From positions 99,748-163,747 of the forward strand of contig CAJULE010000001.1 in NCBI GenBank assembly GCA_910587445.1: DNA of 64,000 nt, written 5' to 3'. Positions 6,759 through 49,749 of the stretch are shown here, piece after piece; within the stretch, counting starts at the first letter, position 1, and the number at the start of each line of letters is the position of its first letter. Both the position numbers and the translations under genes were made by a program. The notes beneath the pieces are model-generated. The model searched no databases. It was not told the origin of the DNA and saw only the letters and a program-made list of their open reading frames with translations. This DNA is from an uncultured Christensenellaceae bacterium (GTDB taxonomy: Bacteria; Bacillota; Clostridia; Christensenellales; Pumilibacteraceae).

Positions 6759-6892
6759 TTGTAATTTATATCCTCGGAACCGACAATGCGGGCAAAAAAA
6801 ATCACAAAGCGGGGCATATCCGTTTGCAAAAAAGCAAGTTTATGTTAAAATAGAATAAAGTGCTTCGGCTGTGTCGGGGAGGAAGAAACATC

Positions 6893-7603
6893 ATGCTGAA
6901 AATAGCGATGGTAGAAGATGAGAAGGAAGCTCGCGAGTCGCTCGGAAAGCTCATAAGGAGCTATTTCGACACACGCGGCGCGGGCGATTATACTGTAAAC
7001 GAATTTCAGAATGCCGTACTTTTTCTGTCGAAGCAAAAAGCCGATCACGATATTGTATTCATGGATATAGAAATGCCGGATTTCGACGGACTTACCGCGG
7101 CAAAGAAACTGCGCGAGACCGATCCGCTTGTGCTTCTTGTCTTTGTCACGAATATGCGCAGATATGCGACAAAAGGCTACAGCGTGGACGCGCTCGATTT
7201 CATAGTCAAACCGCCGACCGAGAACGCGCTGTTTTCGGTGCTCGACAAAGCCCGCAGAGTGCTTGCTTCCCGCACTGGGCGCGACATAATAATAAAGACG
7301 GCTCACGGCATGAGAAGAGTGCCCGTGTCCGAAATACGCTATATAGAGGTCAACCGCCATCGCCTTACGATACATCTCGAAACCGACGCCTTCGAGGCGT
7401 GGGGAAGTCTGAAGGAGTTGGAAGCGCAGCTGCCCGCCGATAAATTTTCGCGGTGCAACATAGGGTATTTGATCAGTCTCGAACACCTTTCGGGGATAGA
7501 CGGAGACGAAGTGGTCATGGGCGAAGATCGGCTCAAAATAAGTCGGCCGAAAAGAAAAGAATTTCTTGCCGACGTTGCCGCATATTTCGGGAGCGTGAGA
7601 TAA
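6893..7603 (+). CDS. LytTR-family response regulator (REC + LytTR DNA-binding domain)
   Basis: N-terminal receiver domain (acidic pocket DEKEA, FMDIEMPDFDG phosphoacceptor region). C-terminal LytTR domain (IRYIEVNRHRLTIHLETD). Start at ATG 6893 preceded by GGGGAGGAAG. ORF-track start 6860 is an upstream GTG. Confidence 0.85.
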   Translation: MLKIAMVEDEKEARESLGKLIRSYFDTRGAGDYTVNEFQNAVLFLSKQKADHDIVFMDIEMPDFDGLTAAKKLRETDPLVLLVFVTNMRRYATKGYSVDALDFIVKPPTENALFSVLDKARRVLASRTGRDIIIKTAHGMRRVPVSEIRYIEVNRHRLTIHLETDAFEAWGSLKELEAQLPADKFSRCNIGYLISLEHLSGIDGDEVVMGEDRLKISRPKRKEFLADVAAYFGSVR

Positions 7604-8955
7604 TGTTCGATTTTTCCGCACCGCTTTTTTGGTATAAGCTCATATTCATGGCAGAACTCCTAATAAGCGAAGCGCTTGCGACCTATACGCTCAAAAAGAA
7701 ATCTCGCTTTGCTTTGCGCGCGCCGCTAAGCGTGCTCGGCTGTCTTGCGACGGCTTTTTTATATCCGCTGCTTTCTTTTTCCTACAACGCCGCCTATACG
7801 TCGGTGATGTTTTTCGTGCTTTTCGGAGTCACTCTCGTCGGAATGAAGATGTGTTACGATGAAACGTGGGTCAACCTGATTTTTTGCGGAATCATCGCGT
7901 ATACCACACAGCATATAGCCTATGAAATAAACTCGCTTGTAACGACGGTGTTCGACCTCGGAGATATAGGCTCGTACTATGGCGGCGCACCCACCGGCGA
8001 GAGTAACCCGCTTATGTATATTACTTATTTCTGCGCATACTTTTTCACCTATTGGTTCGTGTGGGCTTTCATAGAATACAGAATAAGAAGGCGGCAGAGC
8101 TTGAAGATAGAAAACCTGTCTTTGTTCTTTTTCTGCGCGGTCATAGTGGTGATAGACATAGTTCTGTCTACGGTGGTGACCTATCTTCCGTATTCGCCCG
8201 AAGTCAAGTCTTACACGGCGGTGATAGGAATATACAATATACTTTCGTGCGGTCTTGCCGTGGGAATGCTGTTTTCCATGCTCGGCAAGCACCTTGTCGA
8301 GCAAGAACTCGAGACGGTCGAAGAGCTTTGGAAGCGCGACAAAAAGCAGTACGAGATGAGCAGTAAGAACGTCGAACTCATAAACATAAAGTGCCATGAC
8401 CTCAAAAAACAGATACGCGCTCTTTCCGAGGGCAACAGGGTGATTGACGGCGCGGCGCTCAGGGAGATAGAAGAGGCGGTCAACATCTACGACGGGGCGG
8501 TCAAGACGGGCAACGACGTAATAGACGTAGCGCTCGCGGAAAAGAGCCTTATTTGCGAGAGGGAAGGCATAGACTTCACCGTCATTGCCGAGGGCGAAGC
8601 GCTGTTTTTTGTAAGCTCGAACGATTTGTATTCGCTTGTCGAAAACGCTTTGTCGAATGCGGTGGAGAGCTGTCTTAAAACGGACGACAAAAAGGAACGG
8701 TTTATAAAACTGTATATACGTTCGGTGCGCGGCATGGCGAGTATTCACGTCGAAAATTTTTGCGGAAAAGAGCCGAAATTCGTAAACGGCTTGCCCGAGA
8801 CGAGTAAGGACGATAAAGACAGCCACGGCTACGGAATGAGGAGTATGCAGCTTATATCCGAGAAGTACGGCGGCGGACTCAAGGCGTCGTACTCGGACGG
8901 AGTTTTTACGCTCGACGTCATACTTCCCATGCAAACGGGGCAAAAATCGAACTAA
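7603..8955 (+). CDS. membrane sensor histidine kinase, GHKL ATPase of the AgrC/ComD-like (HATPase_c_5) type
   Basis: Start ATG overlaps RR stop (TAATG). Six to seven N-terminal TM helices. C-terminal ATP-binding region (ENFCGKE...SHGYGMRSMQLISEKYGG) typical of LytTR-partner kinases. ORF-track start 7453 runs through the RR gene and is rejected. Confidence 0.75.
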   Translation: MFDFSAPLFWYKLIFMAELLISEALATYTLKKKSRFALRAPLSVLGCLATAFLYPLLSFSYNAAYTSVMFFVLFGVTLVGMKMCYDETWVNLIFCGIIAYTTQHIAYEINSLVTTVFDLGDIGSYYGGAPTGESNPLMYITYFCAYFFTYWFVWAFIEYRIRRRQSLKIENLSLFFFCAVIVVIDIVLSTVVTYLPYSPEVKSYTAVIGIYNILSCGLAVGMLFSMLGKHLVEQELETVEELWKRDKKQYEMSSKNVELINIKCHDLKKQIRALSEGNRVIDGAALREIEEAVNIYDGAVKTGNDVIDVALAEKSLICEREGIDFTVIAEGEALFFVSSNDLYSLVENALSNAVESCLKTDDKKERFIKLYIRSVRGMASIHVENFCGKEPKFVNGLPETSKDDKDSHGYGMRSMQLISEKYGGGLKASYSDGVFTLDVILPMQTGQKSN

Positions 8956-9059
8956 AGCGGGAAAAGAGTATTGAAATCGACGAAACCTTATTTTATAATG
9001 CAAGCGTCTTCGGCAAATGCCAAAATGCTTGGGGATAATAAAAAATAAGGAGAAAAGAG

Positions 9060-12000
9060 ATGGCAAAGGATAAGCTCAGGATGAGCAACAAAAGGTTCAT
9101 GGCGATCATGATACCCGTAGGAGTATTCTTGCTTGCGCTCATAATCGTTGCGGTGTGCGTAATGAATTCTTTTGCGCCGGTCATGGACGCATTCTTCGGA
9201 AGAGGAAAGCGCCACATAGCCAACGTGGAAGGAACGGAAAATTGGGACACGAATTACTATGACGTAAAATACAAGAGTTATGACGAGTCCATAAAGGCGG
9301 CTACGCAAAACGCCAAGAAAGTTACCGACGAAGGATTTGTTCTTATGAAGAACGACGCGCCCGCAGGCAAAGAAAAGTCGCTTCTTCCGCTCGAACCCAA
9401 GGCAACGGTTACGCCGCTGGGAATGCGTTATGACGAAGCTGTCTACGGTATATACGGCTCGGGCTCGCCGCACGACGGCATGGGCATGAAAATGTATTTC
9501 GGCAGTGTCGTTTACGACGATAACTATAAAGTTACGAATCCGTGTTCGGTGGACATTCCCGAGGCGCTCGACGCGGAGTTTACGGTAAACAAAGCGCCGT
9601 TCGAGAAAATGAAGGCTTCCGAATGGGAAGTGATCGGGGAAGCTGACGGAACAATACCGTGCAAAGAAATCGATTCTATAAACGGTTGCGCGGGCAGTAA
9701 TACTTTCCTGTACGAATATAACCCGTCGATTTACGCAGGTACCGAGACAAGCTGCGCAAACAGCGTCGGTCTCGTGTTTATCGGCAGAGACGCGAGCGAG
9801 GGCGGAGATCTCAAGCTCGACGGTTACACGGACGGAACGCCTCACGAGCTTGCGCTCTCGAAGAACGAGCGCGATACGGTGAAGTTCGCAAAGCAGAACT
9901 GCACAGGCGGCGTAGTGGCGATCATAAACTCCTGCAACCCCATGGAACTCGGCGTACTCATGTCGGGCGAGCTCGAGGTGGACGCAATCGTTTGGATAGG
10001 CTTCCCGGGCAGCAACGGCGCGGAGTCGCTTGCCGACATTCTCTGCGGTAAGGTCAATCCTTCGGGCAGAACCGCCGACATCTGGGTAAGCAACCTTATG
10101 AACGACCCTACGTATAAGAACTACGGTTCGTACATCTATTCGTCTGCCGAAGTCGCAAACAGCAAGGCAATCGGCACTTCGTTTGTAGAGTACGAAGAGG
10201 GCGTATATGTGGGCTATCGCTACTATGAGACGGCGGCTGTCATGGACGGCTCGTTCGATTACGACAAAGCCGTAGTATTCCCGTTCGGCTACGGACTTTC
10301 CTACACCGAGTTCGAGCAGAAAATAACTTCGTTCGATACGTTCGGCGACGATATAACCGTCAAAGTTACGGTGACGAACAAAGGGGCAGTGGACGGCAAG
10401 GACGTCGTACAGCTCTATTACACAGCACCCTATACGCAGTGGGACATTGACAAAAAGATCGAAAAGCCGGTCAAAAACCTCGTTGCGTTTGCAAAGACGG
10501 ACATCATAAAGGGCGGACAAAGCGAAGAAGTGACGCTCACGTTCTCGAAAGAGGACATGGCTTCATACTGCTATACCCGCGAAAACAAGAACGGAACTAA
10601 GGGTGCATACGTGCTCGAGAGCGGCGATTATACGGTTACGCTCGGTAAAAACAGCCATGAAGAATGGGATAAAAAAACCGTACATATAAATGAAGAATGG
10701 TTCGACGAGTCCAATCCCCGTCGGAGCGAAAAGAACGGACAGTCAAAGCTCGACGACGAGGGCAACCCCATGGGAGTGACTGCTGTCGGAGGCGATCTCG
10801 ATTTCATAGCCGCAAGCAATCTTTTCGAGGACAGCAACACGTATATGAACTCTTCCACGGTAACGCTTCTTTCCCGTGCGGATTGGAAGAATACCCAACC
10901 TACGACTCCGACGGGCGAATCGTTTAAAGCCCCGAAAGCCGTTTGCGACACGATAGACGCATACAGCAGAGATACGTTCGACTATAAAGCAGATAAGCTT
11001 CTCGGAAACGTCGAAGGCAGTGCAATCTACAAAGCAACCGCACCGACGTCGAAGGCGCAGAACGGTCTGACCGTTGCGGATATGCGCGGACTCGACTACT
11101 ACGACGAGAGTTGGGAACTTCTTCTCGATCAGATTGATTACTCTAAGACCGAAGAGATAAACAAATTGCTTTACGGCGGCGCATACGGTCTCGGTGCACT
11201 CGATTCGATAGGATTGCCTGCTACGAGCAGTGCGGAAGGACCTGCGGGCATAGGATTGTTTGCTCATCTGTTTTACGGAGATACCCGACTTACGAAGATA
11301 CCGAAGATGTGCGGCTATGCGGCTAACACCGTGCTTGCGAGCACGTTTAACGAAGAGCTTGCCTATCTTACGGGCGCGTCGGTAGGGCAGGAAGCATATT
11401 GGTTCAGAAAGGAAGGCGAGACCACTTATCTCAACGGTTGGACAGGGCCGGCGATGAACCTTCACCGCAACGCGTTCTGCGGACGTAACGCCGAGTACTA
11501 CAGCGAAGATCCGGTGCTTGCCGGCGCAATGGGCAGAAACGAAATTTCGGGTGCGGGCGACAACGGACTCTATACGATATTCAAGCACTTTGCCATCAAC
11601 AACATAGAGACGGCTAAGACGGCGGGCGACGGCATATGTACTTGGGCAACCGAACAGACCATGAGAGAAATATATTTCAAGGTATTCGAGGACGTGTTCA
11701 AGAACTCCCGCCGCGAGGTCAAGTACATCGCTGACGATAACGGCACGGTTAAGACGAGAGTGGTTCGCGGCGCAACGGCGGTCATGACGTCGTTCAACCG
11801 TGTGGGTGCGATTCCCGCAGGTTCGAACTATGCGCTCATAACCGAACTTTTGAAAAACGAATGGGGCTTCCAGGGCTTCGTACAGTCCGATATGCCGAGT
11901 CAATCCAATAAGGATCAAATGCTCAGAGCGGGCGGCGCGGTGGAAATGAACTCTTCGGTTTCCGTAGCGGAGGATCTTTCCAGCCCGACCGCTCAGTGGC

Positions 12001-12233
12001 AGATTCGCAGAGCCGTTCACGACATAGCTTTTGCCGTCGCAAACTCCAATGCAATGCAGGGCGCGGCTCCCGGCGCGATTATTTACTACGATATGTCGCC
12101 GTGGGCGATCGGACTCATAATCGCGGGCGTAATCATCGGACTTATCGACGCGGCGATAATCGTGCTCATCGTCCTTCGTGTTCTCGACGCGAAAAAGCAC
12201 CCCGAAAACTACAGACAGAATCAAAAGGTATAG
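9060..12233 (+). CDS. glycoside hydrolase family 3 (beta-glucosidase-like) with permuted domain order and N- and C-terminal TM anchors
   Basis: The GH3 C-terminal sandwich-like region (LVFIGRDASEGGDLK) comes first. Then an Fn3-like region (DVVQLYYTAPYTQ), then the GH3 catalytic TIM-barrel region (RVGAIP..., GFQGFVQSDM with catalytic Asp). Hydrophobic helices at residues about 15-35 and about 1010-1040. Confidence 0.8.
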   Translation: MAKDKLRMSNKRFMAIMIPVGVFLLALIIVAVCVMNSFAPVMDAFFGRGKRHIANVEGTENWDTNYYDVKYKSYDESIKAATQNAKKVTDEGFVLMKNDAPAGKEKSLLPLEPKATVTPLGMRYDEAVYGIYGSGSPHDGMGMKMYFGSVVYDDNYKVTNPCSVDIPEALDAEFTVNKAPFEKMKASEWEVIGEADGTIPCKEIDSINGCAGSNTFLYEYNPSIYAGTETSCANSVGLVFIGRDASEGGDLKLDGYTDGTPHELALSKNERDTVKFAKQNCTGGVVAIINSCNPMELGVLMSGELEVDAIVWIGFPGSNGAESLADILCGKVNPSGRTADIWVSNLMNDPTYKNYGSYIYSSAEVANSKAIGTSFVEYEEGVYVGYRYYETAAVMDGSFDYDKAVVFPFGYGLSYTEFEQKITSFDTFGDDITVKVTVTNKGAVDGKDVVQLYYTAPYTQWDIDKKIEKPVKNLVAFAKTDIIKGGQSEEVTLTFSKEDMASYCYTRENKNGTKGAYVLESGDYTVTLGKNSHEEWDKKTVHINEEWFDESNPRRSEKNGQSKLDDEGNPMGVTAVGGDLDFIAASNLFEDSNTYMNSSTVTLLSRADWKNTQPTTPTGESFKAPKAVCDTIDAYSRDTFDYKADKLLGNVEGSAIYKATAPTSKAQNGLTVADMRGLDYYDESWELLLDQIDYSKTEEINKLLYGGAYGLGALDSIGLPATSSAEGPAGIGLFAHLFYGDTRLTKIPKMCGYAANTVLASTFNEELAYLTGASVGQEAYWFRKEGETTYLNGWTGPAMNLHRNAFCGRNAEYYSEDPVLAGAMGRNEISGAGDNGLYTIFKHFAINNIETAKTAGDGICTWATEQTMREIYFKVFEDVFKNSRREVKYIADDNGTVKTRVVRGATAVMTSFNRVGAIPAGSNYALITELLKNEWGFQGFVQSDMPSQSNKDQMLRAGGAVEMNSSVSVAEDLSSPTAQWQIRRAVHDIAFAVANSNAMQGAAPGAIIYYDMSPWAIGLIIAGVIIGLIDAAIIVLIVLRVLDAKKHPENYRQNQKV

Positions 12234-12382: not shown

Positions 12383-14370
12383 ATGAAAAAGGCAATTTAC
12401 TCATTATGTGCGCTATGTATGGCGCTTGCAATCGTACTTATTCCCGTGAGTACTCTTGACGCTTTCGCTCTTAACGCGGACGCGGAGCCTATGGAAAAAA
12501 AGTGTTCTGCAGCGTGACTCTCGAGGACGACTTTGCGGAAGACGAAGTGGTAGTTACGATAAAAAATAAGGAAAGTTTAAAGTTCAAAAAATATGTAGCA
12601 AGTGATTTCGTCGATATCGGTTGTGAGTCGGTTGATGATTTGTCGATCGCATATGCCGATGATGTGCGAATACATAAGGATCATGCTTGTAAAAAGTCGG
12701 CTTTTGCAAAAGATTATAATCAGCTTCTTAGTCTTAAATTGAAAGAAAAGAGCAAAGAGAATGTTCTCGCGGCAATTAAGGTGCTTGAAAAGCGTGATGA
12801 TGTGCTTTCTGCTGAGCCGAGTTATATTTTGGATTCATTCGATAGTAATGTTGAGGAAAATAACGGGCATGGAATCGAACCAAATAAGGCAATAGGTGGT
12901 GGATTGCCTATAAATCCCGTGTTACCTGTAGTAAAGCCCACAAAGCTTCCTAACGACCCCGGGCGATCTCGGCAGTGGGCAATTGCAAGAATAAAGCTGC
13001 CCGAGGCATGGAACTATACCACGGGTTCGAGTGATGTTGTTGTTGGGGTTATAGACAGCGGTGTTGATTCTACGCATCCCGATTTACAAGGCAAAATCGA
13101 TACGTCGCTTAGCTATGATTTCGTAAATAATACATCTGCTATGCCTGCTACGTCAAGTCTTTTTTATCATGGGACAATGGTTGCGGGAATTATAGCTGCT
13201 CAGACCGACAATGGAGAATGAATTGCAGGCGCAGGGTGGAACGTAAGAATAGCTTCGCTAAGAGTTGGTGACAGCTTGGGTGGAATTAAAACCCCTTATG
13301 TCGTGTCGGCGATAGAATATGCTAGAATAAAAGGGATTCCTATTATCAATCTTAGTCTCGGGGGTAAACAAGACGACAGTAGGCTTCGCAGTGCAATAGA
13401 AAAATATACAGGGGTAATAGTGTGTGCAGCCGGAAATGCCGAAGCGGATAATGATGACAGCAAAAATGCAGTTTATCCGGCGAGTTATAGCTATAGAGAA
13501 AACTTAATATCCGTAGGAGCAAGTGATACAGAGGATAAAAGATTTATAAATGGCGGCACAGGTTCCAATTATGGGAAAACGACAGTAGATTTATTTGCTC
13601 CGGGAGCCAACATATATTCTACGATGATACAAGGGCGTTATCAAGGGTCATGCTCCGGTACGAGTTATTATGAGTCGGACTCCGGGACGTCGTATGCCGC
13701 ACCATATGTTTCGGGTGTTGCCGCATTGTTGCTTTCAAGATTTCCGGAACTTACTGCTGCGGAAATTAAAGACGCTATAAAGAACAATGTCAGTAAAGTG
13801 AGCGCACTCAGTGACCTGTGTGTTTCGGGTGGTAGACTTAATGCCTTAAATGCGCTTATTGGTTTACATTCGGGTCATAGATACGGGCAATCCTATTCAT
13901 TTGTATCGCAAACACAACATGCATCATTCTGCGAATGTGGGGATCATAAACTTGAGCCACATTGGGCATATTCTTCTTCCTTACGTATGTACAACGGACA
14001 TCGATATGCTACTTGTGCGTGCTGTAAATATGAAATAAATATCGATAATAATCCCATAATTGTAATAAGCAATTCAGCTCCCGGAGAGCTTGAACTTATG
14101 GGGCTTAAAGTGGTAGAAAGTCCAAAGCAGCTTGTGCAGGCGCTTTCTCAAAATTTTCGGCAAACAAGTTCTTTGAAAATGGAAGCTGTCCTGTCATATT
14201 ATGATGAAGAGTTTTTTGAGACATATGCAATAGTCCTGTCCGATGATTTTGATATGGAACGTGTCGTAGAGTCTCTGTATTCGAATATAATAGAGTGTAG
14301 AAAATACATTGACAAAGAAGGAAATTTTTGGTATGATACAGACAATAACTATGAGGAGATATATGCATGA
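12383..14370 (+). pseudogene. secreted subtilisin-like (peptidase S8) serine protease, disrupted by a frameshift in an A7 run and an in-frame TGA; C-terminal about 120 aa is a novel tail domain
   Basis: Signal peptide ORF (12383-12510) ends after an A7 run. Adding one A fuses it in frame to the I9 propeptide-like region of the 12502 ORF. The Asp box VVGVIDSGVD and the His box HGTMVAGIIAA are followed directly by TGA (13219-13221) at the position of the conserved Gly of the subtilisin NxxGxG(V/I)AG motif. The same frame continues into ORF 13276-14370 with the Asn (LSLGG) and Ser (GTSYAAPYVSG) boxes. AT-rich relative to its flanks. Confidence 0.7.
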
Positions 14371-14825: not shown

Positions 14826-14850
14826 ATCATACCTAAAATCTAACTTCCGA

Positions 14851-14888
14851 GCCTCGCGGCGACGGTAACGTCGCGCGAGGCTTCTTTA
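14851..14888 (+). terminator. rho-independent terminator
   Basis: gcctcgcggcgac ggtaa cgtcgcgcgaggc hairpin followed by a T-rich tract. Confidence 0.55.
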
Positions 14889-14969: not shown

Positions 14970-16181
14970 ATGAGTGAGAAAAGAGCGATTGTCGTCGGAG
15001 CCGGACTTTCGGGTGCGACGGTTGCGCGCACGCTTGCCGAAGGCGGCGTGAAGGTCACGGTTTGGGAGAAGGAAAAGTATGTCGGAGGCGCGATTTCCGA
15101 CTATAGAAAGGACGACTATTTCGTTCAGCGTCACGGTCCGCACCTCTTCCATACGAGCAGCGAAGCGGCGTACGCCTTTCTTTCGCGCTTCACCGAGTGG
15201 TTCGACTATCGCCACACGGTGCGCGCGCACATAACGAGCAAGTATATCGATCGCTACACATTAAGCACGGACATAAAAGACAAGTATATTCCCGTGCCGT
15301 TCAATTTTACTTCGCTTGAAGCGCTCTATCCCGCGGACAAGGCGAAGAAGATAGAGAGCGCGCTTGTCGGCAAGTACGGTGCGGACGCTGCCGTTTCCAT
15401 TTCCGAGCTTCGTTTGAATCCCGATCCCGAAATAAAGGAGTTTGCGGAATTTGTCTACGTAACCGTTTTTAAGTACTATTCGTTCAAGCAGTGGGGGCTT
15501 GACATGGCGGCGATAGATCCCGCCGTATTTAAGCGGGTGCCCGTAAGGACGGGATACATCGACGGTTATTTTGCGGATAAATACCAGGCTATGCCGAAAG
15601 ACGGATTTTCCGCAATAATCGAGAATATGCTAAAGAGTGAGAACATAACCGTCAAAACGGGCGTGGACGCGATCTCCCGTCTCGCGGTAAAGGACGGAAA
15701 GCTCGAGATCGACGGAAAGCCCGCAGATTGTCCCGTCATATTTACGGGCTGTATAGACGAGCTGTGCGGCGACAGGTTCGGGCGGCTTCCGTACCGTACG
15801 CTTCGCTTCGATCTCAAGGAAGAGAATACGCCGTCTTTCCAGCCGTACGGAGTCGTAAACTACACCGTCACCGAACCCTTTACGCGCATATCCGAATTCA
15901 AGAAGTTTACGGTCGAGAACTCGAAAGCAAAGACGAGCGTTACGGTGCGCGAGTACCCGCGCTCATACGATCGCGAAAGCGAACTTTCTCCTTACTATCC
16001 CATGCCGACTGCGGACGCAAAGGAGAGCTACGCAAAGTATGCCGAGTATGTAAAGGACATAAAAAATCTTTACTTCGCAGGTCGACTCGGCAGTTATGTG
16101 TATGTCAATATGGATAAAGCGGTGGACAGGGCTCTCGATTTGGGAAAGCATCTGCTCGAAACCGCTTTTGCCGCAAAATAG
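14970..16181 (+). CDS. glf: UDP-galactopyranose mutase
   Basis: N-terminal FAD-binding GAGLSG motif. Glf-characteristic blocks: YSFKQWG, KRVPVRTGYIDGYFADKYQAMPKDG, GRLPYRTLRFD and C-terminal FAGRLGSYVYVNMD. Confidence 0.85.
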   Translation: MSEKRAIVVGAGLSGATVARTLAEGGVKVTVWEKEKYVGGAISDYRKDDYFVQRHGPHLFHTSSEAAYAFLSRFTEWFDYRHTVRAHITSKYIDRYTLSTDIKDKYIPVPFNFTSLEALYPADKAKKIESALVGKYGADAAVSISELRLNPDPEIKEFAEFVYVTVFKYYSFKQWGLDMAAIDPAVFKRVPVRTGYIDGYFADKYQAMPKDGFSAIIENMLKSENITVKTGVDAISRLAVKDGKLEIDGKPADCPVIFTGCIDELCGDRFGRLPYRTLRFDLKEENTPSFQPYGVVNYTVTEPFTRISEFKKFTVENSKAKTSVTVREYPRSYDRESELSPYYPMPTADAKESYAKYAEYVKDIKNLYFAGRLGSYVYVNMDKAVDRALDLGKHLLETAFAAK

Positions 16182-16356
16182 TCGGGCAAAAAAGTTATAA
16201 AGACACAAACGAAGTCGCAGTCGCGTCGCAGGACGGCGGCAGGCGGCGAGACGTAAGGGAGTGTACTGTCCGTACATGACCGAACAAGCGAGTCGCGCGT
16301 AGCCGTCATGAGGCGATGAATGCGACTTGGTAAAGAAAGGTTCAAAGGAGTGAAAC

Positions 16357-17523
16357 ATGGATAAACCCAGAGTGGTATTTCCGTTTGTCGAAGCGGGTTT
16401 CGGACACATAATGCCGATGACCGCCGTTTCGCAGGCGTTCGAGGAAAAGTACGGCGACAGGTGCGAAGTCGTCAAGACCTATTTCTATCAGGATACGGGA
16501 AATCCCGTAATGAAAGCCATAGAGGACGATCTCATAAACGAAGTGCGCAAGCACAATCACCACAAGATAAACGGCATAATGCAGTTTGCGCTTATGGCGC
16601 TCGTCGGGCAGAAGGCGTCGATGTCCTATCTTTTCAACACGCGCTATAAAAAAGGCAGACAGGCGTGCATGGACTATATGATGAGCTTAAAGCCCGACCT
16701 TATACTGAACACGCACTTTTCGACGCTGTATTTTGCCAACCAGTGCCGCGAAAAGCTCGGTCTCGATACGGATATAGTCGCGTACTGTCCCGACCCGATC
16801 GTAGGGCGGCAGTGGGACAAACGCACGGATCTCATAGTATTGAGCTCGGAAAACGGCAAAAAACAGGCGATAAAGAAATTGAAGCTCAAGCCCGAACAGC
16901 TTGCTACCGTGCCTTTCATGCTCCGAAAAACGGTCGAAAACTACGACAAGGGCAAGCAGTACTATCGCGAGCTTCACGGTCTCGACAAGGATAAATTCAC
17001 CGTGCTTTTGGTAGACGGAGCATACGGAGAGGGCAAGCTCGAAAAGACTGCCGAAGCGCTTTCAAAGACCGATATGAACCTCAACGTCGTTGCCGTCTGC
17101 GGCAAAAACGAGCCGCTGTACGAACGGCTGAGCAAGCTCGAAACGAAGGAAAACATCACGTTCAAGGCGTACGGTTTCACCGATAAGATGCTCGAACTCA
17201 ATGCGGCGGCGGATCTTTTCGTCGGAAAAAGCGGCGCGAGCAATCTTGCCGAATCGAGCTATCTCGAGGTGCCGCAGATAATTACGCTTTACGCTACGCC
17301 CATAGAAAAGTGGATAGGCGAGTACTATATCGACGAGGTGGGTACGGCGATAAAGCTCGACAAGATAGACGATATAGTGAAAAAGATAGGCGAGTACTAC
17401 TCTTCGCCCGAAAAGATGCAGCCGTATATCGACGCGTGCAAGACCGTCAAGACGACTGCCGGCGGGGAAATGCTTGCCGATATATTGTTCGAGCGGCTCA
17501 AAGTCCGTTTTCCCGAGCTTTAA
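16357..17523 (+). CDS. GT28-family glycosyltransferase, MGDG-synthase / UgtP(YpfP)-like (glycolipid synthase candidate)
   Basis: N-terminal MGDG_synth-like region with GFGH motif, and a C-terminal GT-B nucleotide-sugar-binding half. Adjacent to glf. Confidence 0.65.
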   Translation: MDKPRVVFPFVEAGFGHIMPMTAVSQAFEEKYGDRCEVVKTYFYQDTGNPVMKAIEDDLINEVRKHNHHKINGIMQFALMALVGQKASMSYLFNTRYKKGRQACMDYMMSLKPDLILNTHFSTLYFANQCREKLGLDTDIVAYCPDPIVGRQWDKRTDLIVLSSENGKKQAIKKLKLKPEQLATVPFMLRKTVENYDKGKQYYRELHGLDKDKFTVLLVDGAYGEGKLEKTAEALSKTDMNLNVVAVCGKNEPLYERLSKLETKENITFKAYGFTDKMLELNAAADLFVGKSGASNLAESSYLEVPQIITLYATPIEKWIGEYYIDEVGTAIKLDKIDDIVKKIGEYYSSPEKMQPYIDACKTVKTTAGGEMLADILFERLKVRFPEL

Positions 17524-17544
17524 AAAAGAAAATTTTGTGTTTCG

Positions 17545-18741
17545 GTGCAGAATATGAGAGATGATTTTACAATCGAAGACGGTGTGCTTGTCGAATATCT
17601 GGGCGACGAAGCTGTCCCGGAGATTCCCGGCGGCGTGCGCGAAATAGGCGAAGATGCATTTTTCGGCGCGAATATCGAGGGCGTAATCATTCCCGAAGGC
17701 GTGACGAAAATAGGCGAGTCGGCGTTTTACTCGTGCTCCGATCTTAAGGAGATCCGATTTCCCGACAGTATCGAAGAGATATGCGAGGACGCTTTTTCCG
17801 AGTGCGAAAGCCTCTTGAGGGTGGCGCTTCCTCCGAAGCTCAAAAAGGTGGGAGACAATGCGTTTAACGGCTGCACTTCTCTCGAAGAGGTGGTTTTCAA
17901 CGATGGGCTCGAGGAGATAGGCGACGACGCGTTTATGTTCGGCGGCGTGTTCGACAAAATAACGCTGCCTTCGACCTTGAAAACCATAGGCGATTGGGCT
18001 TTTGCCGAATGCGAGCGTCTGACCGAGGTGGTTATGCCGAGCGGCGTACATATCGGCAGTAGTGCGTTTTCGGGCACTCCGTATGCGGAGGAGAAACAAA
18101 AGGCGGAACGAGCGGCGAGAAGAAAGTCTTTCGACGTTTCGCGTTTTAATCGCGAAGAGGAGCCGGCGAGCAAGACCGTAAAAAAACGCTATCTCAAGGG
18201 AAAGGGCGGACACGCCGCGTCGGAGTATGTCGCTTCCGGCGAAAGAGTGTACATAGAGCTCGGCGCAAAGGGCAAAAAGCCTGTCAGAAAAGCCGTATTC
18301 GGCGGGATTTTCCCGTTTGTCGTGATTTGGATGTTGTTCGACTTCGGCATCCTCGGCGGAATGGCGGTAAGCGGTGTGTTTGCGAAGAATCCGTTTATGC
18401 TTTTCATACTGTTGTTTTTCGCCGTTCACCTTATGCCCGTTTGGATATGGATCGGGGGCATTGTCAAAGCCGTGCGCGGATATACGGACACTTCGTATAC
18501 GGTGACCGATAAAAGGCTGTATCTTTGCGATGGCGGCACGCTCAAATACTGCGAGCTCGAGGACATCCGAAGCGCCGAGGAAAAGGGCGCCGACGGAGTG
18601 AACGTCGTTATGACCGACGGTTGCGAACTCGCTCTTACGGGGATAAAGTTCCCTCGGGATTTTGCTTCGCGCCTCGACGGGCTTGCGGAGAAAAAGCGCG
18701 CCGAAGCCGAGAAAAATTCCGCTTCGGACGAAACGAAATAA
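17545..18741 (+). CDS. BspA-type leucine-rich-repeat (LRR_5) protein with C-terminal two-TM + PH-like (YdbS/YdbT-like) membrane domain
   Basis: Several about 23-aa repeats (IPEGVTKIGESAF..C..L..I.FP). Then a hydrophobic hairpin (FPFVVIWMLFDFGILGG..., FMLFILLFFAVHLMPVWIWIGG) and a TDKRLYL... tail. Confidence 0.6.
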   Translation: MQNMRDDFTIEDGVLVEYLGDEAVPEIPGGVREIGEDAFFGANIEGVIIPEGVTKIGESAFYSCSDLKEIRFPDSIEEICEDAFSECESLLRVALPPKLKKVGDNAFNGCTSLEEVVFNDGLEEIGDDAFMFGGVFDKITLPSTLKTIGDWAFAECERLTEVVMPSGVHIGSSAFSGTPYAEEKQKAERAARRKSFDVSRFNREEEPASKTVKKRYLKGKGGHAASEYVASGERVYIELGAKGKKPVRKAVFGGIFPFVVIWMLFDFGILGGMAVSGVFAKNPFMLFILLFFAVHLMPVWIWIGGIVKAVRGYTDTSYTVTDKRLYLCDGGTLKYCELEDIRSAEEKGADGVNVVMTDGCELALTGIKFPRDFASRLDGLAEKKRAEAEKNSASDETK

Positions 18742-18748
18742 AACAGCG

Positions 18749-18780
18749 TAAAGCGCGGCTTCTTGTCGCGCTTTAGTTTT
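18749..18780 (+). terminator. rho-independent terminator
   Basis: taaagcgcg...cgcgcttta stem followed by agtttt. Confidence 0.55.
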
Positions 18781-18875
18781 ACTATATGTTTGACTTTTTA
18801 CTCTTTTTGTGGTAAGATATATAAAAGACGGTTCGGCTTTGCCGATACGCAAAGAATATCAGAGGTGTCGAAAGT

Positions 18876-20507
18876 ATGGACGCAACGGAAAAGCAACAGT
18901 TGTATTTAAGGGCGCAGGAGCATTTCAGGAATAACGAGCTTGACAAGGCTTTTGCGGAGTTCGACGAGCTCGGCGGTTATCGCGACAGCTACACCTATCT
19001 CGGCTTTATCTCGATGAAGCATCCGCACCCCGGCGTTACGCTCGAATTTACGGCGCAGTGCTTTGCTCTCGGAAGGAAGAAGGGAGACGCCAAAGCCGTG
19101 CTGCTGACCGCGGACTTTGCCCGCAGGATAGGCGAGGGGGAAAAAGCTCTCGGCTATGCGAAACAGGCGATAGACGGTCTCGAGGTGCTTTCGGCAAGCG
19201 ACGACTTCTTTGCGACATACCTGCTCGCGCAGTATTATTCTTATACGGGAAATCCCGAAAAGGCATTCACGCTTGCGCTCAAGGCGGCGGAACGCGGCTA
19301 TTGTGCGGCGGAGTTCTTGGTATCGCAGATGTATGCCGAGGGAAGCGGAACCAATGTCGACGAGGTCAAGGCGGTCAACTACATCGAAAAGTCCGCATAT
19401 AAAAATTACGGCGAAGCGCAGTATGCGCTCGGCTTCCGTTATTCGAAAGGCAACGGCGTACCGCAAGACGACGACATGGCGCTCAAGCTCTATCAAATGG
19501 CGGCGGAGAGCGGCATAAGCGGCGCGGCTTACAATCTCGCGCTTTGGTACGAGAGAAATTACGACAATGCAAATTGCTTCCGCTGGCTCAGGCGCGCGGC
19601 GCTTCTCGGCGACGTGCCCGCGATGATGAAGCTTGCGATGTTCTACGAGGGCGAGAGCGAGCACGACAGCTCTTCCGCTTGCCTGTGGTACGACATGGCG
19701 GCGAGCAAGGGCAGCAGCGAAGCCATATTCCTGCTCGGCGAGCATTTCGAGAGCGGCGAGGGCGTGCCCAAAGATATGAAGCGCGCAGTCGAGTGCTTCG
19801 AGACGGCGGCTCAGGCGGGATATAACCCTGCGCAGAGCAAGCTCGGATATATTTACAAAAACGAAACCGCCTTTCTCAATCCCGAACGCAGTATCTATTG
19901 GAACAACAAGGCGGCGGAGAACGGCGATATGCGCGCCCTGTGCAATCTCGGTCTTGCTTACGAGTTCGGCAACGGCGTGGAAAAGGATCCGAAAAAGGCA
20001 TTCGATCTGTATTTGAAGTCGGCTCGGCTCGGATACGACAGAGGTATGTACAATCTCGCATTCTGCTACATGAAGGGCAACGGCACTCGCGAGGATCATT
20101 GGCAGGCGGCGCAGTACTTCGAAAAGGCGGCGCAGAAAGGCCACGTGAACGCCATGTACAATATCGGCGTCATGTATCTTAACGGAGACGGCGTGAACAA
20201 AGATTGCAAGCGTGCGGCGGAATGGTTCTACAAAGCCGCGCAGAACAACAATATTGAATCGATTTTCTATCTCGGCTATTGCTACCTTAACGGTCTCGGC
20301 GTCAAGAAATATCCGGCAATGGCTGTGCACTATTTCCGCAAGGCGGCCGACGGCGGCGACGTGGAAGCCATGTTCAACCTCGGCTATTGCTATTACAACG
20401 GCAACGGCGTCGGCGAGGACAGAGTAATGGCAAAAAAGCTGTGGAAAAAGGCTGCGGCGGAAGGTCACGCATATGCGCGTGAAGTCCTCGATTCCATAGG
20501 CGAATAA
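18876..20507 (+). CDS. Sel1-like repeat (SLR/TPR-like) protein
   Basis: At least 10 tandem about 36-aa repeats of the Sel1 type (A.YNLG..Y..G.GV..D...A..W..KAA..G). Confidence 0.8.
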   Translation: MDATEKQQLYLRAQEHFRNNELDKAFAEFDELGGYRDSYTYLGFISMKHPHPGVTLEFTAQCFALGRKKGDAKAVLLTADFARRIGEGEKALGYAKQAIDGLEVLSASDDFFATYLLAQYYSYTGNPEKAFTLALKAAERGYCAAEFLVSQMYAEGSGTNVDEVKAVNYIEKSAYKNYGEAQYALGFRYSKGNGVPQDDDMALKLYQMAAESGISGAAYNLALWYERNYDNANCFRWLRRAALLGDVPAMMKLAMFYEGESEHDSSSACLWYDMAASKGSSEAIFLLGEHFESGEGVPKDMKRAVECFETAAQAGYNPAQSKLGYIYKNETAFLNPERSIYWNNKAAENGDMRALCNLGLAYEFGNGVEKDPKKAFDLYLKSARLGYDRGMYNLAFCYMKGNGTREDHWQAAQYFEKAAQKGHVNAMYNIGVMYLNGDGVNKDCKRAAEWFYKAAQNNNIESIFYLGYCYLNGLGVKKYPAMAVHYFRKAADGGDVEAMFNLGYCYYNGNGVGEDRVMAKKLWKKAAAEGHAYAREVLDSIGE

Positions 20508-20525
20508 GCTTTATAAAAGAAATAA

Positions 20526-20556
20526 GACGCGAGGACTTTCGGGTTCTCGCGTTTTG
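20526..20556 (+). terminator. rho-independent terminator
   Basis: acgcgag...ctcgcgt stem followed by TTTT. Confidence 0.5.
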
Positions 20557-20652: not shown

Positions 20653-20853
20653 ATGGAGTTTGCAAGTATATTGAAAGAGTTGAGAAAATCCCACGGATTG
20701 AGCCAAATGGCGCTGGCAAAGCAGACGGGAATAAGTCAGTCCGCGATAGCAAAATGGGAGCTGGGCAAAACCGAGCCGACGGCGACTTCGCTCATCTACC
20801 TGGCAAAGTTTTTCAACGAAAGCGTAGATTATCTTCTCGGTCTTCAATCGTAG
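20653..20853 (+). CDS. XRE-family helix-turn-helix transcriptional regulator (66 aa)
   Basis: LSQMALAKQTGISQSAIAKWELGKTEP is a canonical Cro/C1 HTH. Confidence 0.8.
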   Translation: MEFASILKELRKSHGLSQMALAKQTGISQSAIAKWELGKTEPTATSLIYLAKFFNESVDYLLGLQS

Positions 20854-20867: not shown

Positions 20868-20905
20868 AAAACTCCCGACGGGTGAGTCGGGAGTGCTTTT
20901 GCGTG
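20868..20905. terminator. bidirectional terminator between XRE gene and convergent degV
   Basis: actcccgac gggtga gtcgggagt hairpin with T-runs on both sides. Confidence 0.6.
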
Positions 20906-20945: not shown

Positions 20946-21824
20946 TTATTTGTCCGAAAGCCTGCCCTTGCCGCGGAACACGAAGCCGAGCATACCTCCG
21001 CCCGTGTGTGCGCCGATGACGGGACCGACCCAGCCGATTTTTACCTTGCAACCGTAAGTCGATTCGAGTTCTTCCTTGAACATTAAAGCTACGTCGTTCG
21101 AGTCGGCGCTCGGCAGATATACGTCGCCCTTGAGATCCACCGCGTATTTTTCGTATTGCTCGGTAAAGTATTTAAGCGCGTTTCTCACGCCCTTTGCCTT
21201 ATATACGACGGCGAGTTTACCCTCGTCGTTTATTATCAAGACCGGCTTTATTTTCAGAATGGTGCCGAGCACTGCGCTTACTTTCGATACCCGTCCTCCG
21301 CGGCAGAGGTGGAACAGGTCGTCCGCATAGAACCAGTGATGTACGTTTTGCGCCGTGTCGCGTATAAAGGGGAGCGCGTCCTCGACGGAAAGTCCCTCGT
21401 CTCTGCGACGGATAGCTTCGTCGACGACGAAGTTTTGTCCCTGCGTGGCGGAAAGGCTGTCCACGACGTAGATCTTTGCTCCGGGGTGGCTTTCCATTGC
21501 TTCCGCAGCGCCCATGACCGCGCTGTTGTAGGTGTTCGAAAGTCCGCTCGAAAGAGTGAGATGCACGATATTGTCCGCGCCGTTTTCTATGAGCGAGGAG
21601 AAATATTCGGAGTGAGCGGCGGGCGTGATCTGCGAAGTCGTCGGCATTTTCTTTGCGCGAAGCTGATCGTAAAAGTTCTTGTAAACATCGTCGCTGTCGA
21701 AATCGTCGTCGTACGTTACTCCGTCTATCGTGAAGGTGAGAGGAATATACGAAACGCGGTTTGCCTTCAGATCCGATTTGAAGGCGTCGCAGGAAGTGTC
21801 GGTCGAAATTAAAAACTTGTCCAT
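20946..21824 (-). CDS. DegV-family fatty-acid-binding protein
   Basis: Reverse-strand ORF MDKFLISTDTSCD... with DegV hallmarks (STDTSCD, GPVIGAHTGGG). The overlapping + and - ORFs are rejected. Confidence 0.85.
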   Translation of the reverse strand: MDKFLISTDTSCDAFKSDLKANRVSYIPLTFTIDGVTYDDDFDSDDVYKNFYDQLRAKKMPTTSQITPAAHSEYFSSLIENGADNIVHLTLSSGLSNTYNSAVMGAAEAMESHPGAKIYVVDSLSATQGQNFVVDEAIRRRDEGLSVEDALPFIRDTAQNVHHWFYADDLFHLCRGGRVSKVSAVLGTILKIKPVLIINDEGKLAVVYKAKGVRNALKYFTEQYEKYAVDLKGDVYLPSADSNDVALMFKEELESTYGCKVKIGWVGPVIGAHTGGGMLGFVFRGKGRLSDK

Positions 21825-22164: not shown

Positions 22165-22923
22165 ATGAACGAATGGTGGCAGGCATTGTCTGCGCTTCAG
22201 CAGGTCATGTTCGTGATAGGGGCGGCAACGCTTCTGTTTATGATTGCGCAGATAGTAATGATGCTCGTAGGGCTCGGGGATAACGACCTTTCTACGGACG
22301 CCGATTTGTCGGGTGTTTCCGACGCGGGCGGCGATTTGGACGCGGACGTTTCCGGGATCGACGCGGGCGACGGAAGTTTCGACGTAAGCTCGGGCGGCAT
22401 CGGAGACGTGGGCGGCGACGTCGGCGGAGCGGGTCATGCGATTGAGCCGCACTGTCCTCATCCGGGCGGCTTCCACGCCCTCGGCATGAGACTGCTTTCG
22501 CTTCGCTGTATAATAGCGTTTTTCTGTTTCGGCTCTTGGGTAGTGTTCATTATGGACGCGCTCGTAGATTGGTACTTCGCTCTTATTATAGGCGTGGTTG
22601 CGGGCTTCGCAGCCGCAGTCTTAATGGCGCTTATCATGAACCAGATCATGAAGCTTCAGGGCGACGGAACCATCAAAATGAAGAACTGCATAGGTAAGGA
22701 AGGCGAGGTGTACCAGATAATTCCCGCCTCGCGCGAAGGAATCGGTAAGGTCAATATTCTCATTCAGGAACGCTTTAAGGAGTTCGACGCAATGACCGAC
22801 GACGACGATTCCATAGGCGCGGGAGAAACGGTGCGCGTCGTAAAAGTGGATTCGTCTTCCGCGGTAGTCGTCGAGCGCGTCAAGGACAAAAACAGACAGT
22901 CGCGTCACGACAAAGAGAATTAA
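22165..22923 (+). CDS. NfeD/YuaF-like membrane protein (OB-fold C-terminal domain) with Asp/Gly-rich low-complexity linker
   Basis: N-terminal TM helix, then a D/G-rich about 70-aa acidic stretch. Two more TM helices, then a C-terminal NfeD-like beta-barrel (GKEGEVYQIIPASREGIGKVNILIQERF). Directly upstream of flotillin. Confidence 0.65.
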   Translation: MNEWWQALSALQQVMFVIGAATLLFMIAQIVMMLVGLGDNDLSTDADLSGVSDAGGDLDADVSGIDAGDGSFDVSSGGIGDVGGDVGGAGHAIEPHCPHPGGFHALGMRLLSLRCIIAFFCFGSWVVFIMDALVDWYFALIIGVVAGFAAAVLMALIMNQIMKLQGDGTIKMKNCIGKEGEVYQIIPASREGIGKVNILIQERFKEFDAMTDDDDSIGAGETVRVVKVDSSSAVVVERVKDKNRQSRHDKEN

Positions 22924-22970
22924 AAAGGCAATGTTTAAGGATAATAGATAGGAGGTATAAATAAAAGAAC

Positions 22971-26902: not shown

Positions 26903-27184
26903 TTGGAGACTATGGGACTGAGAGTAATAGAAAGTCCTACCGAGCTTGCAAATGAAATATGTACTTTGGAAAATGTTTCGGAATACTATCGAATAAATGA
27001 GATATTATCGCATTATGATGAACTGTTTTTTGAAAAGTATAATATTGTAATAGCCGATAATACGGATAAGAGCAATATCATAGATAATTTGCATATGAAT
27101 ACAGTAGAGAATAGTAAAAATATCGGACAAAAAGAAAGTATATTATTCGGCAAAGATTGTGAGTTCGAGGAGGTATATGTATGA
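26903..27184 (+). CDS. small cytoplasmic protein (93 aa) homologous to the C-terminal tail of the S8 protease at 13990-14370; first gene of cassette copy 2
   Basis: MGLRVIESPTELANE...LSHYDELFFEKYNIVIADN... aligns with LMGLKVVESPKQLVQ...LSYYDEEFFETYAIVLSDDF... of the protease tail. RBS GGAGAGTTGGAG. Confidence 0.55.
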   Translation: METMGLRVIESPTELANEICTLENVSEYYRINEILSHYDELFFEKYNIVIADNTDKSNIIDNLHMNTVENSKNIGQKESILFGKDCEFEEVYV

Positions 27185-42052: not shown

Positions 42053-42080
42053 TTGACAAAAATCCGTATAGGGGATATAA
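42053..42080 (+). promoter_or_regulatory. consensus sigma-A promoter TTGACA-N16-TATAAT
   Basis: TTGACA at 42053-42058, TATAAT at 42075-42080, then AAAGGAGG RBS before 42120. Confidence 0.5.
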
Positions 42081-49736: not shown

Positions 49737-49749
49737 GGAGGGAAGTACG

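Follow-up and report, generated by a model that had tools for sequence, protein, structure and literature searches.

Coupling of a divergent UDP-galactopyranose mutase to a GT28-like glycosyltransferase in an uncultured Christensenellaceae bacterium points to a candidate galactofuranosyl-lipid synthase

This study concerns two adjacent genes of an uncultured Christensenellaceae bacterium (assembly GCA_910587445.1, contig CAJULE010000001.1, positions 99,748 to 163,747 of the forward strand; this whole stretch of 64,000 nucleotides is referred to as the window). The first, glf (window 14970..16181, + strand, 403 amino acids, aa), is assigned to a UDP-galactopyranose mutase of a divergent lineage which would supply a furanose donor, and the second (GT, 16357..17523, +, 388 aa) encodes a GT-B glycosyltransferase of a GT28-like clade, a candidate UDP-galactofuranose (UDP-Galf):lipid (diacylglycerol, DAG) beta-galactofuranosyltransferase. 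Comparison with related loci supports a functional coupling of the two proteins, and it is highly probable that the GT takes as its donor the nucleotide furanose which the neighbouring mutase produces; the fuller proposal, that the GT is an inverting enzyme making beta-Galf-DAG, acceptor included, is one on which we are evenly divided. Donor, acceptor, anomeric outcome and co-transcription are all inferred from sequence. An earlier note on this DNA had proposed that four co-directional genes between 14970 and 20507, namely glf, the GT, a gene for a BspA-type leucine-rich repeat (LRR) protein and one for a Sel1-repeat protein, form a surface module for the synthesis of a Galf-containing glycolipid or lipoteichoic acid (LTA) anchor. 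All four (+) open reading frames (ORFs) were recovered at exactly these coordinates in the ORF list of the window, and profile matches returned the same four families; as for the proposal itself, the coupling of glf to the GT and the class of the lipid glycosyltransferase have stood, whilst the four-gene surface module has not.

The assignment of the mutase draws on several profiles. Glf passes the equivalog threshold of TIGR00031 narrowly (324.7 bits, cut-off 303.75) and scores 200 bits on PF03275 (gathering score 26.3), and an FAD-binding Rossmann motif is found in its N-terminus, where PF13450 matches residues 8-74. The best match in the Protein Data Bank (PDB) is the UDP-galactopyranose mutase (UGM) of D. 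radiodurans (3hdq, E 4.7e-60), with which the motifs HGPHLFHT, YFADKYQAMP, LPYRTLRF, PYYPMP and GRLGSYVYVNMD all align; in this alignment Glf keeps the UGM patterns GAGxxG, HGPHxFHT, YFADxYQAMP, LPYRxLxF, PYYPxP and GRLxxYxYxNMD. The clear Glf motifs described in the earlier note were thus borne out, by the TIGR00031 score as well as by the alignment to 3hdq. As a separate observation, six Glf proteins from the database (P0155, P0158, P0160, P0165, P0180, and P0234; 556-597 aa) carry a GtrA-like transmembrane domain (PF04138) fused to the mutase, which is putatively a domain of the lipid-sugar flippase type.

On the grounds of both sequence and a structural model, the GT is classed as a GT-B enzyme of the lipid-glycosylating GT28 kind, with DAG glycosyltransferases as its nearest relatives. 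It scores 38 bits on PF04101 (Glyco_tran_28_C; gathering score 22), and its sequence matches in the PDB are to UgtP of the B. subtilis type (9wde, 1.9e-13), to MGD1 (4wyi, 1.4e-12, residues 2-330) and, more distantly, to MurG (3e-4). An AlphaFold model of the GT (pLDDT 93.6, from an alignment of 34 homologues) had MGD1 as its best Foldseek match (4x1t; E 1.5e-16, TM 0.82 normalised to the target, 19% identity), followed by MurG and an unrelated GT-B enzyme at about 1e-9. Residue H17 in the N-terminal loop EAGFGH aligns with the GGGH loop of MGD1, and the stretch GKSGASNLAES (K291...E299) with TKAGPGTIAEA of MGD1 and TKPGGITLTEA of UgtP; of these residues, H17 and E299 do not vary across 34 aligned family members, and K291 is kept in at least 90% of them. 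The protein therefore displays several sequence and fold features of a GT28-type enzyme, namely a GT-B fold of two Rossmann domains, a PF04101 match above the gathering score, the glycine-loop histidine and the K-x-G...E motif, and the GT28 lipid-glycosyltransferase type suggested in the earlier note agrees with the best sequence matches in the PDB (UgtP and MGD1) and the best fold match (MGD1). No transmembrane helix is predicted in the window GT.

The same comparisons indicate that the GT is not a UgtP equivalog and instead belongs to a separate, small family. Its top NCBIfam model is that of diglucosyl-DAG synthase (NF010135), matched over residues 4-380, nearly the full length, at 93.1 bits against a cut-off of 500, and it scores 56.3 bits on NF010134 (cut-off 557), below the UgtP/YpfP equivalog threshold. 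Other members of the family score 30-100 bits on the UgtP model, as opposed to 225-233 bits for proteins nearer to true UgtP, and the window GT shares only about 24-25% identity with the latter. The clustering with glucose-specific UgtP enzymes that the earlier note would have counted against a Galf lipid was therefore not found. In a HMMER scan of 1.84 billion representatives, 75 representative clusters were returned at E <= 1e-30, from which we take the family to be small, and those of its representatives that were looked up were of metagenomic origin only. The N-terminal domain of MGDG synthases (PF06925) gave no match in the window GT at E <= 0.01; it occurs in some homologues as a precomputed or weak match (P0014, P0029, and P0040; and P0368, P0393, and P0384 at E about 1e-4).

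The evidence that carries the link between the two genes comes from the distribution of glf among relatives of the GT. Eighty genomic loci encoding such relatives were fetched, the window proteins were mapped onto them and their ORFs were clustered; a neighbour-joining tree of the GTs divided the loci into an upper clade, to which the window GT belongs (23 fetched loci), and a sister or lower clade (57 loci). glf lies beside the GT in nine of the 23 upper-clade loci as well as in the window, and in none of the 57 sister-clade loci (Fisher p = 3.5e-6, uncorrected for phylogeny), which have housekeeping gene neighbours and no glf within 10 kb; all glf-linked GTs thus fall within one clade. The four closest genomes (L001-L004, GTs 73-93% identical) all have glf immediately ahead of the GT gene, and in two of these Glf and the GT form a single ORF (L002, 789 aa; L003, 779 aa). 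As these are metagenome-assembled genomes (MAGs) from separate assemblies, and the linkers are of different lengths, the fusion is no assembly artefact. In L004 the glf stop codon directly abuts the ATG of the GT gene, in the metagenomic contig L082 the two are 21 nt apart, and in L011 and L013 the ORFs overlap. No Glf-GT fusion was present among the top 120 protein-database matches to either query, Glf or GT, and the multi-domain proteins of the GT family returned by the HMMER scan are joined to domains other than Glf, which leaves L002 and L003 as the only documented cases.

Coupling extends to more distant members of the clade and to a second type of mutase. Where the GT is about 50% identical, glf adjoins it in L007, L011, L013, L015, and L018, before or after the GT gene and in places overlapping it, and the Glf proteins of these loci score 378-433 bits on TIGR00031. 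Those of L007, L013, and L018, together with that of L083, an Izemoplasma genome contig in which a canonical-type glf shares a gene cluster with a clade member GT, are only 28-34% identical to the window-type Glf and represent a second, canonical Glf lineage; all Glf proteins tested from both lineages exceed the TIGR00031 cut-off. Gene order varies (glf-GT, GT-glf, and glf-two-component system-GH3-GtrA-GT), and two MAGs hold two GT paralogues each (L013/L014 and L007/L021), of which one in each pair is the glf-linked copy. Taken together, the fusion, the tight coupling, the several gene orders and the two mutase lineages make donor supply the most economical reading, and the functional link between glf and the GT has come out strengthened, through the fusions, the abutting or overlapping genes and the second Glf lineage beside the same GT clade.

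In the pathway that we propose, Glf would convert UDP-galactopyranose to UDP-galactofuranose, and the GT, a soluble GT-B enzyme, would take up UDP-Galf at the cytoplasmic face of the membrane and transfer Galf with inversion to a membrane lipid, for which sn-1,2-diacylglycerol is the most probable acceptor. CAZy GT28 enzymes are inverting and use lipid acceptors; inversion of UDP-alpha-D-Galf would give beta-Galf, as found in natural Galf-DAG. The beta-Galf-DAG so formed might function as a glycolipid of the membrane or anchor a polymer, either a lipoglycan or one resembling LTA. What would be new is that a GT28-like lipid glycosyltransferase used a furanose donor and had natural fusions to the mutase.

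Several associations of the GT family bear indirectly on the nature of the acceptor. P0384 is a member of the family with a C-terminal acyltransferase domain of the PlsC type. Multi-domain fusions of 660-933 aa are found in the sister clade, and seven of the ten fusion proteins scanned (P0362, P0365, P0368, P0374, P0376, P0385, and P0393) have an N-terminal polytopic domain resembling O-antigen ligase/Wzy_C, whilst P0380 and P0386 have a long hydrophobic polytopic N-terminal extension with no Pfam match; we know of no description of such multi-domain GT architectures. A GtrA-like four-helix protein of about 290 aa is encoded immediately 5' of the GT gene, with the two ORFs overlapping or abutting, in two Acholeplasmataceae loci (L017, 1323-2189; L019, 9150-10001), a Bacillales MAG (L022, 1058-1954) and Izemoplasma (L083, 7123-8001); it has a soluble N-terminal region and four C-terminal helices that match GtrA weakly. 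GtrA proteins are usually tied to polyprenyl-phosphate sugars. A conserved lipoprotein of about 183 aa was also noted directly downstream of the GT in L022 and L083. The GT clade occurs in MAGs of Acholeplasmataceae and Izemoplasma, in the latter with Glf. Both are wall-less lineages, and the presence of the GT together with Glf in wall-less Izemoplasma argues for a membrane glycolipid over a wall polymer.

The proposal should nevertheless be considered with caution, as a number of observations weigh against it. The GT resembles the characterised DAG glycosyltransferases only distantly (MGD1 is 19% identical, and the NCBIfam model gives 93 bits, cut-off 500) and PF06925 is undetected, so that the choice of acceptor is argued by analogy at the level of the family. 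Polyprenyl-linked intermediates would suit the O-antigen-ligase-like and GtrA-like associations equally well. More than half of the loci of the clade are without glf within 10 kb, several of these being contigs that end near the GT, and the 175-nt spacer that parts the two genes in the window, as in L001, leaves co-transcription as a prediction. The Glf lineage of the window is divergent and barely above the equivalog cut-off, so that a related nucleotide-furanose donor is possible. Many loci of the clade also lie amid sugar-catabolic genes (GH2, GH3, GH43, GH78, MFS_2 transporters, AraC/DeoR regulators, and UxaC), a setting unlike the usual surroundings of a housekeeping membrane-lipid synthase; that these surroundings look partly catabolic is the chief ground for caution.

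Of the alternatives, the one that survives best keeps the UDP-Galf donor and changes the acceptor: Galf would go, perhaps processively, to a sugar carried on polyprenyl diphosphate, the kind of acceptor used by MurG, or to a glycolipid made beforehand, and the pair would begin or lengthen a Galf-containing wall polysaccharide, a teichoic-acid-like polymer or a lipoglycan. MurG is a clear though weaker relative of the GT by both sequence and fold, the sister-clade fusions to O-antigen-ligase/Wzy_C-like domains and the GtrA-like proteins coupled to the GT would suit such a product, as would the existence of Glf-GtrA fusions, and the PDB entry annotates UgtP as processive. However, UgtP and MGD1 outrank MurG by about nine orders of magnitude in sequence E-value and by about seven in the Foldseek search, the acyltransferase fusion points to glycerolipids, and the clade is found with Glf in Izemoplasma and alone in Acholeplasmataceae MAGs, both lineages without a wall. 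The window ORFs scanned also gave no other glycosyltransferase, no Wzx/Wzy or LtaS, and no gene for a priming transferase, a flippase or a polymerase; over 46 ORFs of the window, no further envelope-polysaccharide genes were seen. On balance we regard an acceptor other than DAG as rather unlikely.

Alternatively, the GT may be an ordinary pyranose-specific (Glc/Gal) glycosyl-DAG synthase of the UgtP/MGDG type, with glf adjacent by chance or serving a polysaccharide pathway elsewhere. Such a role is in keeping with the best NCBIfam model, with the name "processive 1,2-diacylglycerol beta-glucosyltransferase" given to some homologues by one source, with the 57 sister-clade loci set amid housekeeping genes and lacking glf within 10 kb, and with the 175-nt spacer in the window. 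It is harder to square with the single Glf-GT polypeptide in two related genomes, with adjacency or overlap in many loci involving two Glf lineages and several gene orders, and with a score of 93 bits against 500 on the UgtP model when the nearer UgtP-like proteins reach 225-233 bits; the paralogue pairs in which one copy is glf-linked, too, fit differing specificities. An ordinary pyranose-specific enzyme is accordingly judged improbable, and the preferred reading remains a UDP-Galf-dependent enzyme acting on DAG.

The extent of the transcription unit was assessed from the signals around the genes. A terminator-like G+C-rich hairpin with a T-tract (about 14849..14887, +; GAGCCTCGCG...CGCGAGGCTTCTTT), which was read from the sequence and is not listed by the terminator/promoter scan, lies 3' of an upstream gene for a 152-aa lipoprotein-like product and likely marks the 5' limit of the glf transcription unit; a ribosome-binding site, GGAGG, stands 7 nt ahead of the glf ATG. 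The signal scan found neither terminator-like nor promoter-like sites in the 175-nt glf-GT spacer (16182..16356, +), in agreement with the earlier note, which had described this gap as free of a terminator, and it found no transcription signals in the gap between the GT and the LRR gene. The latter gap had been given as 22 nt; the close spacing holds, but the value found was 21 nt from a GTG start at 17545 or 30 nt from an ATG start at 17554, and a database twin of the LRR protein (P0241, 395 aa, 100% identity, 99% query coverage) has the length expected from the ATG. Downstream of the LRR gene is a terminator-like hairpin (18749..18775, +; an 11-bp stem and then GTTTTACTAT), likely the 3' end of the unit, followed by a promoter-like site ahead of the Sel1 gene (TTGACT-17-TAAGAT, 18790..18818, +; signal scan), and a further hairpin with a U-tract, read from the sequence, lies 3' of the Sel1 gene (about 20525-20552, +). 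Two transcription units are therefore likely, [glf-GT-LRR] and [Sel1], and glf, the GT gene and the LRR-membrane gene are probably co-transcribed as one. This three-gene core has the signal-free gaps and the conservation (in L001-L004 and L082) of an operon; the four genes together do not, as signals separate the LRR gene from the Sel1 gene and the latter is kept only in L001, L004, and L082.

The glf-GT spacer itself can form a long, imperfect, G+C-rich hairpin of 125 nt (about 16208-16332) with no U-tract, which was more stable than shuffled sequences (-61.6 kcal/mol, z = -3.9). A riboswitch or conserved leader RNA was considered here and rejected: an Rfam search of the spacer gave no match at E <= 1, and in L001, the 93%-identical relative, the spacer has a different sequence that folds no better than shuffles (z = -0.44). 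The hairpin is missing in relatives whose glf and GT genes are fused or abut, and its 29-nt core has no second copy within the window.

The third gene of the unit (17545..18741, +) encodes a protein of 398 aa in which a BspA-type LRR region precedes hydrophobic segments, read as a transmembrane hairpin, and a small beta-rich C-terminal domain. The match to PF13306 is strong (171.6 bits, gathering score 27.7), residues 5-190 are modelled by AlphaFold (three homologues) as a regular beta-strand repeat with pLDDT of about 90, and this part matches solved BspA-like proteins strongly (e.g., 4fs7), as is expected of a BspA-type solenoid. The hydrophobic segments (residues 247-310) are predicted to be transmembrane and are followed by the beta-rich domain with its C-terminal helix. 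The earlier note had called the gene product an LRR/PH membrane protein; the LRR and the predicted membrane segments hold, whereas the PH-like label finds no support in Pfam, the PDB or AlphaFold, given that the C-terminal region (about 312-385) has no Pfam PH/bPH match at E <= 10 and no PDB sequence match and that the C-terminal half is modelled with pLDDT below 50. The hairpin, beta strands and C-terminal helix are compatible with a PH-like fold, the identity of which remains a guess. In L001-L004 and L082 the GT gene is immediately followed by a counterpart of the LRR gene, with 29-73% identity in L001-L004 (29-33% by tblastn, or 33-37% by MAFFT, in L002-L004), whilst the L082 gene was recognised only by an LRR_5 match and its position. 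Only three clusters in the database are full-length homologues, and the protein evolves quickly. It has no N-terminal signal peptide, and as basic residues flank both sides of the hydrophobic hairpin, the LRR and C-terminal domains should both face the cytoplasm. We therefore picture a lineage-specific, membrane-tethered, cytoplasm-facing partner of the GT, perhaps a scaffold for what would be a peripheral enzyme.

The fourth gene (18876..20507, +) encodes a Sel1-repeat protein of 543 aa, in which PF08238 matches eight stretches (276.3 bits, gathering score 30.7). With neither a signal peptide nor a predicted transmembrane helix, the protein is predicted to be cytoplasmic. It is syntenic only in L001, in L004, where a 1370-aa gene is inserted between the LRR and Sel1 genes, and in L082, and it is missing from L002 and L003; by this distribution it is a neighbour and not a component of the conserved unit. 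In L082, genes of the FabH, acyl carrier protein (ACP) and FabD types were seen downstream of the Sel1 gene (8247-9527). Two very long antisense ORFs overlap the LRR and Sel1 genes of the window (17062-18852, -, 596 aa; 18906-20468, -, 520 aa); they most likely just reflect the codon composition of the genes on the sense strand.

The possibility that all four genes form a single cell-surface module, with the LRR/PH and Sel1 proteins at the surface or secreted and acting with the Galf-lipid, is considered very improbable. All four genes are co-directional and closely spaced, the LRR gene follows the GT in five relatives, in three of which the Sel1 gene comes after it, and proteins with BspA-type LRRs or Sel1 repeats often act at the cell surface or in interactions with a host. 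However, the terminator-like hairpin and the promoter-like site divide the group, the Sel1 gene is absent from two of the closest relatives and displaced by the 1370-aa gene in a third, neither protein has a signal peptide, the flanks of the LRR hairpin would place both soluble domains in the cytoplasm, and beyond the near relatives the GT is found with different partners.

These other partners, which recur across distant lineages, lie outside 14970-20507: by homology they are a LytTR regulator, a GHKL kinase and GH3 hydrolases, together with the GtrA-like protein in other lineages. Upstream of glf the window encodes a LytTR-type response regulator (6860..7603, +; Response_reg and LytTR domains, likely start ATG 6893), a GHKL (HATPase_c_5) membrane histidine kinase (7603..8955, +; PF14501, 70 bits) and a membrane-anchored GH3 hydrolase (9060..12233, +; 1057 aa). 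The start of the kinase gene, as read from the translation, overlaps the end of the regulator gene, and the ORF as listed (7453-8955) shows four hydrophobic segments at its residues 90-273. The GH3 protein has an N-terminal hydrophobic anchor and an apparently permuted domain order (GH3_C 94-386, Fn3-like 448-532, and GH3_N 755-880). Homologues of the regulator are upstream of GH3 and GT in L001, L007, and L019 (36-79% identity) and in L083, with a broken copy beside glf in L082, and homologues of the kinase occur in L001, L007, L019, and L083; the pairs are next to GH3, GT or Glf genes at L007 2949-4954, L019 4536-6571, and L083 2533-4574. Regulator, kinase and GH3 are thus found beside the GT in L001, in a Eubacteriales MAG (L007), in Acholeplasmataceae (L019) and in Izemoplasma (L083), with differing gene order, that of L083 being glf, regulator, kinase, GH3, GtrA-like gene, GT, lipoprotein gene and permuted GH3.

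Two types of GH3 can be told apart at these loci. Long homologues of the window GH3 are near the GT in L001, L016, L017, L018, and L019, and the permuted GH3 of L083 has the same domain order and an N-terminal anchor. The second type is cytoplasmic, with a highly conserved N-terminus, and in L002, L004, L007, L019, and L083 its gene immediately precedes that of Glf, the GT or the GtrA-like protein. Overall, GH3 genes occur in 11 of the 23 upper-clade loci and in 3 of the 57 lower-clade loci. This recurrent and reshuffled association with the LytTR system and GH3 suggests a larger regulated system, in which these partners may regulate or remodel the product. More speculatively, and with clearly less confidence than we have in the enzyme itself, Glf, the GT, the LytTR system and one or two GH3 hydrolases, joined by the GtrA-like protein in some lineages, could make up an undescribed regulated galactofuranosyl-lipid system of gut Christensenellales, Izemoplasma, and Acholeplasmataceae, in which the GT would be the first GT-B/GT28 galactofuranosyltransferase and Galf-DAG synthase and GH3 would remodel or turn over the Galf-lipid or polymer. 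The opposite direction of flow would be a salvage route: the GT, running backwards on a galactofuranoside that had been imported or released, would yield UDP-Galf, which Glf would then pull towards UDP-Galp for the Leloir pathway. This would make sense of the upper-clade loci rich in GH2, GH3, GH43, GH78, MFS_2 glycoside transporters, AraC/DeoR regulators and UxaC, of the cytoplasmic GH3 directly upstream of the GT, glf or GtrA-like gene in five loci, and of the established facts that the UGM equilibrium strongly favours the pyranose and that some GT-B enzymes are reversible. It is nevertheless very improbable: no pathway of this kind is known to us, the closest relatives of characterised function act in the synthesis of glycosylated lipids, membrane products are what the acyltransferase, ligase-like and GtrA-like associations suggest, and these saccharolytic genomes may simply be dense in glycosidases.

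Between the GH3 and glf genes lies a gene for a subtilisin-like S8 peptidase (window 12502-14370, +; L001 6162-8025) interrupted by one in-frame TGA at 13219-13221. The TGA falls in a G-x-x-G stretch after the catalytic-His region (...TDNGE*IAGAGWN...), at a position that is usually Gly in subtilases, and the L001 copy is broken differently, by a frameshift; the gene is probably a decaying pseudogene rather than one with a recoded stop.

Comparison with known systems helps to define what would be new in the preferred reading, that of a Galf-DAG synthase. UgtP/YpfP of Bacillus and Staphylococcus (NF010135/NF010134; 9wde) makes the LTA glycolipid anchor; it offers the best NCBIfam model and the best PDB sequence match and shares the K...E motif, but the window GT is far below the equivalog cut-off, belongs to a separate family and is coupled or fused to Glf, which suggests UDP-Galf rather than UDP-Glc as donor. 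MGD1 of Arabidopsis (4wyi/4x1t) transfers galactose from a UDP donor to DAG with inversion and is the closest structure, with the GGGH loop in common; it differs in using a pyranose donor and in having no link to a mutase gene, whereas the window GT is a bacterial protein, 19% identical, in which PF06925 is undetected. MurG shares the GT-B fold and PF04101 with a much weaker match (3e-4 by sequence, 1e-9 by fold), and the GT clade occurs also in MAGs of the wall-less Acholeplasmataceae and Izemoplasma. To our knowledge GT28 and the GT-B enzymes include none of the characterised galactofuranosyltransferases GlfT1/GlfT2, WbbI, WbbO, LPG1, and GfsA, and diacylglycerol is the acceptor of none of them. 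The window GT would, if confirmed, be the first GT-B galactofuranosyltransferase known to us. What these enzymes share with it is the presumed UDP-Galf donor and the coupling to glf. They are the only galactofuranosyltransferases named in a 2020 review (PMC7278926), and our literature search for a galactofuranosyltransferase of GT28 returned nothing relevant.

That certain bacteria contain galactofuranosyl-diacylglycerol as a membrane lipid has been known for decades. In S. mitis, beta-Galf-(1,3)-DAG occurs as a glycolipid in free form and also anchors the type I LTA (bioRxiv 10.1101/2021.05.06.441962; also cited in PMC11565941); the authors of this 2021 study looked for the synthase, found no candidate and stated that no enzyme with Galf-DAG synthase activity had been described (bioRxiv 10.1101/2021.05.06.441962). 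No later assignment of a Galf-DAG synthase gene was found in the literature searched, although most subscription journals were outside the search and the absence is no proof. For the Gal-DAG of M. mycoides and JCVI-syn3A, GT2 enzymes have been assumed to be the makers (PMC6609329). Both lipids belong to the product class predicted for the window GT, and the beta anomer in S. mitis fits an inverting enzyme. The GT is thus a concrete candidate for an activity that has no assigned gene. If the prediction is correct, the GT28 family gains a furanose donor specificity and Galf-lipids become predictable from the genomes of gut Christensenellales, which are health-associated, heritable gut taxa; as Galf is absent from mammals, such lipids would be plausible immune ligands and diagnostic or drug targets. 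If, on the other hand, the acceptor or the donor is ordinary, the GT is just another divergent glycolipid synthase.

Some other features of the window were recorded. Downstream of the Sel1 gene is a gene for an XRE-type helix-turn-helix (HTH) regulator of 66 aa (20653-20853, +), followed by a strong terminator-like hairpin (20871-20894) and then by a DegV-family gene (20946-21824, -) and an NfeD and SPFH/flotillin-like pair (22165-24395, +), the last two features being syntenic in L001 and L004; DegV proteins form a fatty-acid-binding family. Three ORFs on the + strand had no Pfam family at E <= 1e-4 (24511-26685, 724 aa; 27181-28338, 385 aa; and 42011-42940, 309 aa), the first having a faint rhamnosidase-like NCBIfam match only. 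Further downstream, three large consecutive genes (44495-52437, +) encode an 822-aa protein with Listeria-Bacteroides repeats and two fusions of an ABC ATPase to an FtsX-like permease, each of about 900 aa.

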